DNA from: Catajapyx aquilonaris
Taxonomy: Eukaryota
Assembly: GCA_000934665.2 (NCBI GenBank)
Contig: JYFJ02005392.1
Span: forward strand, 1 to 52,586
Direction: 5' to 3'
DNA length: 52,586 nucleotides
Below are positions 3,289 to 51,154 of the stretch, one piece after another (position 1 is the first letter of the stretch; the number at the start of each line of letters is the position of its first letter). The translations under genes were made by a program, and so were the position numbers. The notes under the pieces are model-generated. The model was not told the origin of the DNA and did not search any database. It saw nothing but the letters and a program-made list of their open reading frames with translations.

Positions 3289-3473
3289 CACTGTATACCG
3301 CAAAACATTAAAAGAGCATCACTGTAACATCAATTTTTAATGCTCTTGTGATGCTCCTGTGATGCTTTTTTGTTGCTGAAAAGCATCACAAGAGCATTAG
3401 CAGAGCATTAAAAATTGATGTTCCATGAGAGACTCACCAGAGATGCTCTTTTTATGTTTTGCGGTTTACAGTG
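3289..3473. mobile_element. Palindromic (foldback) MITE, TA-flanked
   Basis: TA-cactgtataccgcaaaacat... and ...atgttttgcggtttacagtg-TA; nearly the whole element is self-complementary. Confidence 0.85.
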
Positions 3474-23600: not shown

Positions 23601-26572
23601 AGCGCAGGCAATCCGGTGTTCCAAAAAAAAAAAATCCCATATGAGGCCGCAGCAGGCTTAGCACGGGATGTCGAATTAGGTGTCTAGGAAATATACAGGG
23701 TGTTCAAACTATGCGGGTCGCTTTAGTTATAGAATTTTTGCTCAAAGCTGTCATTTTTGTAGCGTGTTGCGCCCGGCTCCAGGTGGACTATTATGTAGCA
23801 ATGCTGTATTCGTATATAAATATTCGTACCATAGATTAACGATTCGTACATAAATAAAGTAACCCTCCTGGTTTCCATCTGACGATATACCGGATAGCTA
23901 CAGTACTTTTTCTAGTCAAGAGAGGAGAGCCACCTGACTATCAGGCTTTCGCGAACAATCTAACATACTAAGCCTGTAGTCACTATACTGAAGAACCTGA
24001 GTAGTACTCGGGTTCTTCAGTTAATGATTTTGATTAGCAGGTTATTATGCAGAAGTAAAAATGCAAGTGTCCTAGAGTACTTTTAATACCACTTTGACGC
24101 CCACGTTGGAGCTGGAATACGAGACACTACTGACGTCAACCGAAGTTATTCCTTGGGCTGTAATCTCATTACTATACGGTATACCGTACGCAAGGAGTTG
24201 TAAACTTCAACGAAATGATCCACTTACTGTAACAATTCAAATTTCTTGAAGCAGAAACAGAAGCTGTCTTGGAGTGACAACAATGGCGCACTTACCTTGA
24301 CACGTGGCCTCTCAGGCCATTTCATCACATACAGACCATATTATTGGTGTGGCCTAGATCTCATTTCGAGACTTCCGTTTCTCAGCAGATAATTGTTCCC
24401 ATGATGAAGGAAAATATCTCCCCCACAAGCTACGCGCGTGTACAATCTACGCCGTATGAGGATGCAAATGAAATATACAAACAAAAATATAAATGTTTGA
24501 AGGACGTGATAAAGAGAGGCAATTTCTTTTCACATTCATCACGGGTTATTTTTCGCAGAAATTTGCGCCAGGTGTGGTCCTACCCACTTGTATGAGGAGT
24601 AATGAAAATGAGACCGACTCTATTGAAAACACTTTCTCCATCCAAATGACTCTTCAGAGGCAGGGAACCCAAGCGCTCTCAACTTCATATTCGCAACCGT
24701 AGTCAGTTTTTCGATGATATAGGAGAATACAGAGCTTAATTTTGTGGGAATTATTTCTTACTGTTCTGTAATTACCTGGTACCGACGTCTTATATACATC
24801 AAAAGAGGAGGAAACCCCTCTAGGAAAATTGTCATTATTTTGAGCGCAGCCTTTGCCCTCTCCTTAACTCCACAGGATTTCTGAGATGCCTTGTAGATTT
24901 TCCGAGGGGGTAACAACTTCGTAAATCCGATGCGCACTTCGCCATAAATCCCTTCATATACCGTATCTCTGCATAAAGCCCATCAATCTGGTACACACTA
25001 AACTGATAAGTTGTTAGCCCCTTGGGATTTTCCTGAATCTTCTTGTGAATCCAGGATATTTGACTTCGAGAATCTATGGTGGGCGGGATTCATGTCATGT
25101 CTATAGTATCAAGACGCATTTTCTATCCTTTCTACGAACCACTGACTTCTGGAAGCTTCTTTTAATATGATGCTATAAGCCTATAACGGTATTAAATATA
25201 CAAGGAAATACGCAGAACAGCGAAACGCAATTCCCAGAAGTATACCTCGCTCTTCAAAAAAGACGCTTATTTCACCTAATCAAAGTTGACAACATGTTTT
25301 CCGCTAAGGTTATAGACATCTTTGAATGCCTCACAAATTGAACCTCACTCTCGAGTCCTATACCATATAAGCGTATTTCTCTATGGTGCTTTATAAACCT
25401 TCATTGTGATGGACCGGAGAGGAGGTATTAATAACATTGAGGAGTAGCCAATACGCCTACTATACTGAACGTAATAAGATTTTCGGCATATCCTTTTTTT
25501 TTGCTGTCAACAGTTTCCAGGTCGATAAACACTTAGTAGACTCTCCGTATAGAGCTTAAAAGATTACTCGAAGACATTATATGTGAAATAATTTTTGAAA
25601 ACTGAATTAACCGACATGGGTCTAAGGTTCAGGCTGGGCTCATACAGGCTCCAGGAACGTTATTGTTGCTTTTGCCAATATGTATCTTATCAGTTGGCAT
25701 CAGGAATGGTGACCAGAGATCCTGGATCCCGCACCCGGCACAAATGTTGAGGTTTTGGAATACAGTATCACTGTTGCGTAAACTCTGCAATATTTTTCCG
25801 CATGTCTGGAATTTTTTGAGTAAGTTCGGATCTACATATGTGTCGGAGCTACGCATTTTTTTCAATATGCAGAATCGCATAGAAATTTTTATGCAATTTA
25901 AACATTTTAAATTTAATAAAAATTACTATAATGGGTTGGGGGGCACTCCAATACAACCGCTCTACTGTATACACTTTCTAATTTTAAAAGCGAAAAATAA
26001 TTTCAAACTCTATGTTCACAGTCTATTCTATTAATAGAAAATAATTATAGGGGTGGGAGAACTAAGCGATAGCATGAATTTGAGAAAATCGATGCCTCAA
26101 TATACACATAATAACATGGAAAGCAAACGTGGTTGATTTGCCTCAATTCTGTAGTTTTAATTGCACTGATTGCAACATCTACATGGTATAAATTCTTCCA
26201 ATACTGCCTAATGACCAAGCATGCAGTGTAAGTACTCTGCTATAGTAAAATTAAAAACTGGCTGAAACTTGCTCCCGCGAACACAGCACCGCCCAGTTAT
26301 AGGCTATGTATCTGTCCGACGCTGTCGCGAATCTGCGCAAAACCCAGAAAAACATGTCAAGTGGGTGAGGGTGGGTGACAGCAGGGCGGGAGGGTGTCCG
26401 GGATGCCAATAAAATGAGCCGTGGACAGCTATCCGTCTTCAGAACTCGAGTTCGACTCGTCACGTGCAGAGAGCTCATTCCATAGACTACTATTGTGCTC
26501 TTCACTGTGTGAGTATGAAGTGTGCATGGCTCTGAGATTGAATGAGATCGCATAATACTGTTTATTTGGGTG

Positions 26573-26647
26573 GGTCCCATAGTGTAGATGGAAGCACTCT
26601 GGTTCTCAAGTGGACCAGCAGTCCGAGTTCGAATCTCGGTGGGGCCT
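26573..26647 (+). tRNA. tRNA-Gln-like gene or pseudogene with atypical, enlarged anticodon loop
   Basis: Acceptor GGTCCCA/TGGGGCC plus discriminator T; D stem GTGT/GCAC; anticodon stem CTGGT/ACCAG around a 10-nt loop; T arm CCGAG-TTCGAAT-CTCGG; T7 run at 26654-26660. Confidence 0.75.
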
Positions 26648-26653
26648 TGCCAC

Positions 26654-26660
26654 TTTTTTT
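26654..26660 (+). terminator. RNA Pol III terminator (T7)
   Basis: T run 6 nt after the tRNA-like discriminator base. Confidence 0.6.
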
Positions 26661-27347
26661 CGCATGGAGTATGTCTGAAGATTGTTCAGTTGCTATTTAT
26701 TTTGGAGAAAAAGTGTGCGTATTGAGAGAATTATATTACAGTATATTTGACATGAGCGCGTGTTTCTTTTCTTTCGATGCCAAATGCTTCCGGATGGCAC
26801 TGATGAACTGCAGAAGAAAGCGACTAAAGGTAAATTTGCTATACAGATCAACAAAATCGCATTTTGGTGTGTCCCACCTGCAGTTTTATCTCGTGAGTAC
26901 ATTATCTCGTTGGCTGATTGGCTCTGATCCGAGGCACTATAACGTTCATCCGAAGTAACTTTCCGCGTTGCATGCTGGGGTGTAATTTTAAATCGTGACA
27001 GTTCTTTTAAGATGGTAACTAAAGGGATTAATTTTAATTGCAATAATCCACTTTAAATTTACATAAAACTAGGATGAGATTTGCATGACGGCTGATTAAT
27101 TATTTGCTTCGTAATGCAATATTGCGTGGAATAAGTTTGTTCATATCGAGTAATTGAAGTACTGTACAGTGACAGTGCCGAGGTCAAATATTTCGTAGCA
27201 GTGGCAAAATTGAATCGACGTGACTGAATTGAGACCTGGGGTGATTTTTATTCAATATTTCGTCGAAAACGCAATAGGGCGTGGAACATATCGTGTAAAA
27301 ATTATATATCAAAAATTACCGTGTGTTGAGATCAAAATAAGAGTATA

Positions 27348-31298: not shown

Positions 31299-31876
31299 CG
31301 AGGGCCGTAGTAAAATGATTTGAAATTTATTTATTTTTGCTACAAATACAGCGACCGTACAGGTCGCAGATAGGCGCAAATTATCGATAGAATCCGCCTG
31401 GAGCCAATATACACAGGAGTCATGGGTATGGCAACCTCTCCAGACCCTCCAGGAACCACTTTTTGGCAGTGAGGTGCACCCACTCTCGGACAACTGCGCG
31501 CAGTCAGCAATGTCCTCGATATGGCGTCGGCGAAGGGTTTTTTTTTCATGTCCCTGAACAGGTGAAAGTCACAGAGGGCCAGATCGGAGGAATACGGCGG
31601 GTGTGAAAGCACCCAAAGCCAGATCCAGGGGGAAAAAACTCTTCGCTGACGCCATTTCGAGGACATTGTTGACTGTCCGCAGTTGTCCGGGAGTGGGTGT
31701 GCCACACCACCAAAAAGTGGTTCCTGGCGGGCCTGGAGACGTTGACACACCTGTGGTGGTATAGTGCATCCGGCAGGAGGCATGACTATCTGCCGACCTG
31801 TATGGGCACTGTATTTGTGGCAAAAAAAAACAAAAAACAAAAACAGAAGTTGTAGATCATTTTAGTACGGCCCTCG
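31299..31876. mobile_element. mariner-derived MITE with a transposase C-terminal remnant
   Basis: TA-cgagggccgtagtaaaatgat and atcattttagtacggccctcg-TA; - strand reads HPPYSSDLALCDFHLF (mariner YSPDLAPxDF motif). Confidence 0.92.
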
Positions 31877-50640: not shown

Positions 50641-50749
50641 TGTACTATATCGCTCAAAAACATAAGACGATTTTGCATTTGACTCACGTGCAACCTGCAC
50701 TTGAATCAAATGCAAAATTGTCTCTTATGTTTTTGAGCGATATAGTACA
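50641..50749. repeat. Near-perfect ~109-bp palindrome (MITE-like hairpin)
   Basis: tgtactatatcgctcaaaaacataaga..ttttgcatttga vs tcaaatgcaaaa..tcttatgtttttgagcgatatagtaca. Confidence 0.9.
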
Positions 50750-50988: not shown

Positions 50989-51154
50989 CAGTGTTGGTCA
51001 TACATCGAGGCAACTGCCAGCGACATTTTTCTGAAGCAGCAGAAGAAGGAATCGAAGGTAAGCATACTACAAGTCGGGCGAACAAGATTCCTTCTGCTGC
51101 TGCTTCGGAAAAATGTCGCTGGCGGTTGCCTCGATGTACGTATGACCAACACTG
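50989..51154. mobile_element. Palindromic MITE, TA-flanked
   Basis: TA-cagtgttggtcatac..gaggcaac..ccagcgacattttt and the mirror image ending gtatgaccaacactg-TA. Confidence 0.9.

Follow-up and report, generated by a model that had tools for sequence, protein, structure and literature searches.

The window analysed here is a stretch of 52,586 bases from Catajapyx aquilonaris. It carries a tRNA-like gene at 26573–26647 on the forward (+) strand, 75 nt in length including the discriminator base; sequence and coordinates are as an earlier reading of the letters alone (the sequence-only reading) had described them. RF00005, ARAGORN and a covariance model of tRNA-Gln genes (R1, see below) together point to a tRNA-Gln-type cloverleaf with a non-canonical anticodon arm. 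ARAGORN returns it as the single gene in the window (26572–26648, +), labelled tRNA-??? with a four-base anticodon (caag). A search of 26450–26750 alone with Rfam gives a match to RF00005 at 26573–26647 (46.1 bits, E 5.5e-09, gathering score 29). The predicted fold of 26573–26646 is a cloverleaf of −30.5 kcal/mol (z −3.2), and a fold as good was obtained in 1/200 shuffles.

Rfam scans of the whole window, run in gathering mode and in E-value mode, missed the gene: one gave no matches and the other 13, none of them to tRNA. The 301-base search recovers the 46-bit tRNA match, and the whole-window misses are a filter effect and not evidence against the gene. Where odd tRNAs are concerned, negative whole-window Rfam scans should not be taken as absence.

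Read 5′ to 3′, the gene begins with one strand of the acceptor stem, GGTCCCA (26573–26579), which pairs in the folds with the 3′ strand TGGGGCC (26640–26646) through six Watson-Crick pairs and one U·G pair. The dinucleotide TA leads into the D arm (26582–26597), delimited by alignment and by the list of differences from canonical genes: its stem is GTGT/GCAC, its loop is AGATGGAA in place of the canonical AATGGTTA, and it holds the A-box region. A single T precedes the anticodon arm, CTGGT-TCTCAAGTGG-ACCAG (26599–26618), which is predicted to form a 7-bp stem (26599–26605 with 26612–26618) and a 6-nt loop (26606–26611). The first base of that loop, 26606, is polymorphic: T in the window and C in a minor linked haplotype present as a 110-nt bubble contig in sequencing run X4. 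By alignment, the variable region is a short CAGT (26619–26622; canonical CGAT), without a long variable arm. It is followed by the T arm, CCGAG-TTCGAAT-CTCGG (26623–26639), which RF00005, the fold and R1 all recognise and which holds the B-box region. After the acceptor strand come the discriminator, T at 26647, and then (26648–26660) a 6-nt trailer, TGCCAC, with a run of seven T at 26654–26660 that resembles a Pol III terminator.

The sequence-only reading had proposed paired acceptor, D and T stems, A- and B-box regions and a T7 run 3′ of the gene. The stems are borne out by the folds and by the ARAGORN drawing, and the T run lies where it was placed. The D-arm and T-arm sequences, which hold the A-box and B-box regions, align to RF00005 with high posterior probability. 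T runs serve as Pol III terminators. In sequence, the locus thus has the elements of a type-2 (tRNA-type) Pol III gene: A-box and B-box regions inside it and a T run downstream.

The T-arm/B-box core of the gene has a 12-nt copy (CGAGTTCGACTC, 11/12 identical) 177 nt upstream, at 26447–26458, which may be there by chance; neither ARAGORN nor RF00005 on 26450–26750 detected a second tRNA near it. In a Pfam search of 41 of the 58 stop-to-stop ORFs of at least 70 aa between 14 and 40 kb, the only match was a sub-threshold one to SHLD2_C (17.5 bits vs 27), and the two ORFs that overlap the tRNA-like gene had no credible Pfam match.

The tRNA-Gln-type body

The reference set consists of seven eukaryote-type tRNA-Gln genes, six with anticodon CTG and one with TTG (ARAGORN), from six loci of genome contigs; they are mutually 99% identical and come from organisms other than the host. 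A human tRNA-Gln printed in a figure legend of PMC5159642 served as an extra reference. The six loci (L003–L008) are filed under bacterial MAGs, yet their seven genes are canonical and eukaryote-type, with an inverted tRNA-Gln pair on a 662-base contig and three tRNA-Gln genes on one 24-kb contig; these loci are probably eukaryotic DNA binned with bacteria.

Outside the anticodon arm, 45/55 positions of the gene equal the consensus of the seven canonical genes and 10/55 differ. R1, the covariance model made from the same seven genes, finds the locus as its sole match in the window (60.8 bits, E 4e-16), about 45 bits below the canonical tRNA-Gln genes themselves (103.1–107.5 bits). The model discriminates: in L006, a non-Gln tRNA fragment scored 20.2 bits and a second tRNA, worth 58.6 bits on RF00005, was left unmatched. 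With RF00005, five canonical tRNA-Gln genes (four of the six loci scored) reach 65.6–68.4 bits vs 46.1 for the locus. Identity to the consensus and the scores from both models therefore define a Gln-type but clearly diverged copy.

The tRNA-Gln body proposed by the sequence-only reading is upheld by this identity and by the R1 score. The further claim of that reading, that change is focused on the anticodon arm, holds in one part and fails in the other: the arm has been rebuilt, but the body has also changed, at the ten positions just mentioned. Set beside canonical nuclear tRNA-Gln(CUG/UUG), the locus matches in the acceptor, D stem, T arm and U73-type body, but lacks the YUG anticodon and the 7-nt loop.

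The anticodon arm and decoding

The 31–39 pair of the anticodon stem is U-A instead of A-U, giving CTGGT/ACCAG vs CTGGA/TCCAG in 7/7 references and in the human tRNA-Gln of the PMC5159642 legend. The stem encloses 10 nt, TCTCAAGTGG, vs 7 in 7/7 references, with the heptamer CTCAAGT at 26605–26611. All three features (the double change with pairing kept, the 10-nt enclosed region and the heptamer) had been reported from the sequence alone and are confirmed. What that earlier reading missed is that pairs can form at the two ends of the enclosed 10 nt, U26604 with G26613 (a U·G pair) and C26605 with G26612.

With the remaining cloverleaf held fixed, the calculated energies are −24.8 kcal/mol for 5 bp with a 10-nt loop, −27.1 for 6 bp with 8 nt, and −30.6 for 7 bp with 6 nt. 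The longest stem thus beats the shortest by 5.8 kcal/mol; the probabilities of its two extra pairs are 0.996 and 0.994, and the predicted 6-nt loop is UCAAGU. Because the outer bases are predicted to pair, a 7-nt loop displaying CTCAAGT is not expected, and no register yields a 5-bp stem with the 7-nt loop CUCAAGU. ARAGORN draws a 5-bp stem with an 8-nt loop, C-U-CAAG-U-G, under the label tRNA-?(Leu|Leu)(caag), an arrangement 3.5 kcal/mol worse than 7 bp with 6 nt. Chance alone would give two such additional pairs in ∼14% of random cases, so the extension of the arm is in itself no evidence of design.

Two origins for the enlarged arm were considered and rejected. For a tiny intron, the intron options of ARAGORN change nothing, and removal by eye of 3 nt at 37/38 gives TCTCAAG, with neither U33 nor a Gln anticodon. 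Inversion of the palindromic arm would, by eye, leave the 31–39 pair unchanged.

Could such a gene decode? As a tRNA-Gln it would present a 7-nt loop with U33 and CUG or UUG; it has 10 nt that contain neither CTG nor TTG. As a tRNA-Leu(CAA) it lacks the marks of that isotype: the discriminator is the T at 26647 and the variable region is 4 nt. A73 is a determinant of leucine identity in eukaryotes. Table 3 of PMC9976931 includes A73 for human tRNA-Leu, and the tRNAscan-SE 2.0 paper (PMC8450103) names the long variable arm as an identity element of tRNA-Leu(CAA). For E. coli GlnRS, PMC9976931 gives U35, G36, the acceptor stem and the 10–25 pair as determinants, with losses on mutation of up to 10^5-fold. 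With no U35/G36 anticodon presented, charging by GlnRS would not be expected, nor would charging by LeuRS, because base 73 is U and the long variable arm is missing. A gene whose product neither enzyme charges would take no part in translation.

The heptamer and the ARAGORN drawing nevertheless suggest two ways in which the gene might be a decoding tRNA: as a reader of UUG, with CAA on a Gln body, or, with an 8-nt loop, as a quadruplet reader of the +1 frameshifting kind, with CAAG. There is precedent for the second, as E. coli tRNAs with enlarged anticodon loops can suppress frameshifts (PMC5009743). Such suppressors (the sufB2 type and E. coli mutants with 9–10-nt loops) resemble the locus in having an extra-long loop on an otherwise normal tRNA; they are, however, chargeable and carry one inserted base beside a cognate anticodon, whereas the locus has lost its cognate anticodon and has a loop predicted to close. 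Both decoding roles also meet obstacles in the arm itself: the thermodynamic prediction pairs 'C32' away and closes a 6-nt loop, one haplotype alters 'U33', and quadruplet reading would put U at position 37. Neither synthetase would find what it needs (A73 and a long variable arm for LeuRS; U35/G36 for GlnRS, if the E. coli data can be extrapolated to an arthropod). A decoding tRNA of either kind is extremely improbable.

The resemblance to tRNA-Leu(CAA), which the sequence-only reading had treated as potentially meaningful, is not supported by these comparisons: part of the heptamer is predicted to be base-paired, the discriminator and variable region are not those of Leu, and a co-existing haplotype turns its 'U33' into C. 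The doubt which that same reading had expressed about decoding is supported, given the absent Gln anticodon, the predicted closed loop and the missing Leu marks.

Copy number, alleles and paralogues

Of five sequencing runs, none recorded as RNA, four contain the stretch; these four come from one study, and three of them are flagged as possibly from the source sample. In X1 and X2, Logan contigs cover 26300–26900 with 0 differences, at depths of 29.7 and 25.4. X5, from another sample under the same species label, has 0 contigs matching the stretch. Because the matching runs represent one sample, maybe that of the assembly itself, they provide an independent assembly and not independent DNA.

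In X4 there is a k-mer bubble at 26527–26636, where the window allele has a depth of 17.2 and a second contig, of 110 nt, a depth of 5. Their sum is close to the flank depth of 20.5, as expected for alleles. The minor haplotype carries three linked changes within 50 nt: A26557G, 16 nt upstream of the gene, and C26577T and T26606C, both within it. C26577T converts the C5–G68 pair to U·G and T26606C alters the 'U33' of the Leu-like reading; the predicted fold is the same for both alleles.

That the unusual loop is an artefact of assembly or sequencing can almost certainly be discounted, since the X1 and X2 contigs reproduce it with 0 differences and the window allele in X4 has a depth of 17.2, albeit all in one sample that may be the source of the assembly. 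A read-level error in the loop, named in the sequence-only reading as something that would overturn it, is contradicted by the contigs of all three runs.

Copy number was estimated from contig depths of the same-sample runs. Summed depth over 26615–26635 is far above that of the flanks: 208 vs 29.7 in X1, 163.7 vs 25.4 in X2, and 154.1 vs 20.5 in X4. The rise is limited to the last ∼34 nt of the gene, the 5′ half and the anticodon arm being at 1x. Other contigs match this stretch with 1–3 differences and continue into different sequence beyond it (loose-end agreement 0.51–0.54). These depths suggest that the 3′ half is common to about 6–7 loci and that the arm and the rest of the 5′ half occur once.

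The sequence-only reading had entertained a 'SINE seed', and its own counter-case was that of many copies embedded in a larger repeat. Conserved A-box and B-box regions with an anticodon arm that is free to vary are the pattern expected of SINE heads, and tRNA-derived SINEs and retropseudogenes share with the locus a tRNA shape, preserved A/B-box regions and a free anticodon region. The locus differs from them, however, in being single copy with unique flanks: 26300–26900 is at single-copy depth save for those last ∼34 nt, and the flanks of the other loci are different. Moreover, the gene is not followed by poly-A, and direct repeats of at least 10 nt, which could mark a target-site duplication, are absent from its flanks; the gene has instead its own short trailer and T-run terminator. 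Without poly-A, target duplication or shared flanks, as judged from the sequence and these contigs, the locus is not a SINE, and we regard an origin as a SINE head derived from a tRNA, or by retroposition of a tRNA, as very unlikely. The same contig depths contradict a larger repeat: they put the flanks and the arm at 1x and show sharing for the 3′ half alone.

Two of the paralogues that share the 3′ half also have odd arms. The first lies on a 7.2-kb single-copy contig and has ATGGCAGCACTCTGGGCTCCTTATGGGAAC directly before the position corresponding to 26615; by eye, a 5-bp stem closed by a G-C pair encloses 13 nt, which can pair internally. The second, on a 5.1–6.4-kb contig, has TGGTTCTATGGTGCAACGGCTAGGCACTCT directly before 26613 and seems, again by eye, to leave no room for an anticodon hairpin. 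Together they indicate that damaged or rebuilt anticodon arms recur in the tRNA-Gln family of this genome.

Probable loss of decoding and possible maintenance

Differences from canonical tRNA-Gln outside the arm fall on 1/32 paired vs 9/23 unpaired positions (Fisher p 0.0009), a contrast to be read with three things in mind: the references belong to other organisms, part of their 3′ half was preset by the pattern used to find them, and 5 of the 9 unpaired differences sit in the D loop, where they may reflect one indel shift. The changed positions include some in the D loop and the variable region as well as positions 9 and 57. Even neutral decay would not yield such a stem-sparing pattern. The pattern could equally have been inherited from the species' own functional tRNA-Gln genes, for the 3′-half differences are seemingly common to the genome's other loci (1–3 letters differ in ∼34).

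Relatives beyond this genome were sought in contig collections. The exact arm has two matches in metagenome contigs, both of them chance matches without any tRNA. A family pattern with the variable region and T loop of the locus gave 0 matches in genome contigs and 0 in viral contigs; a looser pattern gave, in genome contigs, six loci with seven canonical tRNA-Gln genes, all of normal loop length. No orthologue was thus found in the metagenome, genome or viral contig collections. A literature search found no exact match to three stretches of the gene and, on enlarged-loop or crustacean tRNA-like RNAs, general reviews only.

We favour, with moderate confidence, a nuclear tRNA-Gln paralogue, single-copy and diverged, that no longer decodes but still looks transcribable by Pol III; it may be called a tRNA pseudogene or a tRNA-like gene. 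Given the intact A-box and B-box regions and terminator, TFIIIC and Pol III probably still transcribe the locus, and its transcript could be matured by RNase P, RNase Z and the CCA enzyme. In the functional sense this would be a tRNA pseudogene, of the kind that tRNA finders report with an 'undetermined' anticodon. Copies with a wrecked loop can persist because they are harmless, whereas chargeable anticodon point mutants would mistranslate and be purged; a filter of this kind would account for visible damage being concentrated in the anticodon arm. Disabled copies of tRNA genes are common in animal genomes. Another arthropod genome has ∼300 tRNA pseudogenes, according to PMC4244043.

A human gene described in PMC8450103 offers a close comparison. 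It too is a high-scoring cloverleaf of one isotype with an unfit anticodon region and no Leu long variable arm; it is likewise single copy, and it was judged likely to be silenced or non-translating. The human gene, however, has just one altered base, in a loop of the normal 7 nt, whereas the locus has 10 enclosed nt, a swapped 31–39 pair and a predicted arm of 7 bp and 6 nt.

Two observations sit awkwardly with simple loss of decoding. One is that changes spare the stems and that the 31–39 change is compensatory; the other is that two paralogues, this gene and the one enclosing 13 nt, have self-pairing enlarged arms, different from one another, so that what has been kept could be the hairpin. 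Both count in favour of a tRNA-like RNA that does not decode but is maintained; made by Pol III and given tRNA-like processing, it would have been kept for some other role. By analogy, such a role would be, for example, the binding of GlnRS or other tRNA-handling proteins, as in mammalian mascRNA, or that of a DNA element bound by TFIIIC. All stems are intact, substitutions avoid paired positions, both alleles keep the fold, and an enlarged arm that can pair with itself recurs, by eye, in a second paralogue.

The closest functional precedent, mascRNA, is described in PMC9976931 as a cloverleaf that lacks a conserved anticodon loop and that binds and stabilises GlnRS without being charged. Like mascRNA and menRNA, the locus is a cloverleaf without a usable anticodon loop, but it is not a member of their family, scoring 18.4 bits on RF01684 against a gathering score of 42.5; and whereas mascRNA is released by cleavage of a long Pol II transcript, the locus looks, from its sequence, like a stand-alone Pol III gene. 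Besides the low score on the mascRNA model, several points tell against maintenance: no orthologue was found in the contig collections searched, the two extra closing pairs are within reach of chance (14%), the loop is polymorphic within the sample, and stem sparing may come from the functional tRNA-Gln genes of the species. We therefore rate a maintained RNA as unlikely.

A more specific version would have this gene and its relatives form a small single-copy set of Pol III-type genes, with a tRNA-Gln body and differing closed-hairpin arms (7 bp and 6 nt here; 13 nt in the other), acting as non-decoding mimics, for instance by binding or stabilising GlnRS, as mascRNA does in mammals, or by marking sites for TFIIIC. 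This is distinctly improbable. Were the closed-hairpin arms found to be conserved and expressed, they would represent an invertebrate, Pol III-made counterpart of the mascRNA-type regulators. As it stands, the locus, read as a tRNA-Gln paralogue that has lost decoding, matters little; it should be annotated as tRNA-Gln-derived with undetermined anticodon, and not as a tRNA-Leu or a suppressor.

Elsewhere in the window, a 173-aa open frame at 31340–31861 (−) includes a stretch, …HPPYSSDLALCDFHLF…, that resembles the C-terminal part of mariner-type transposases; the frame has no Pfam match even at E 10. Hairpins at 51021–51118 and 3341–3407 give sub-threshold matches, on both strands, to unrelated microRNA families (for example mir-15, 36.2 bits vs 57.3, and mir-4773, 35 vs 100). 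A palindromic hairpin at 50642–50748, by its appearance a MITE-type foldback and not a microRNA gene, matches MIR7993 and, on both strands, the MIR1120/MIR1122 model (49.2 and 47.5 bits vs a gathering score of 86).
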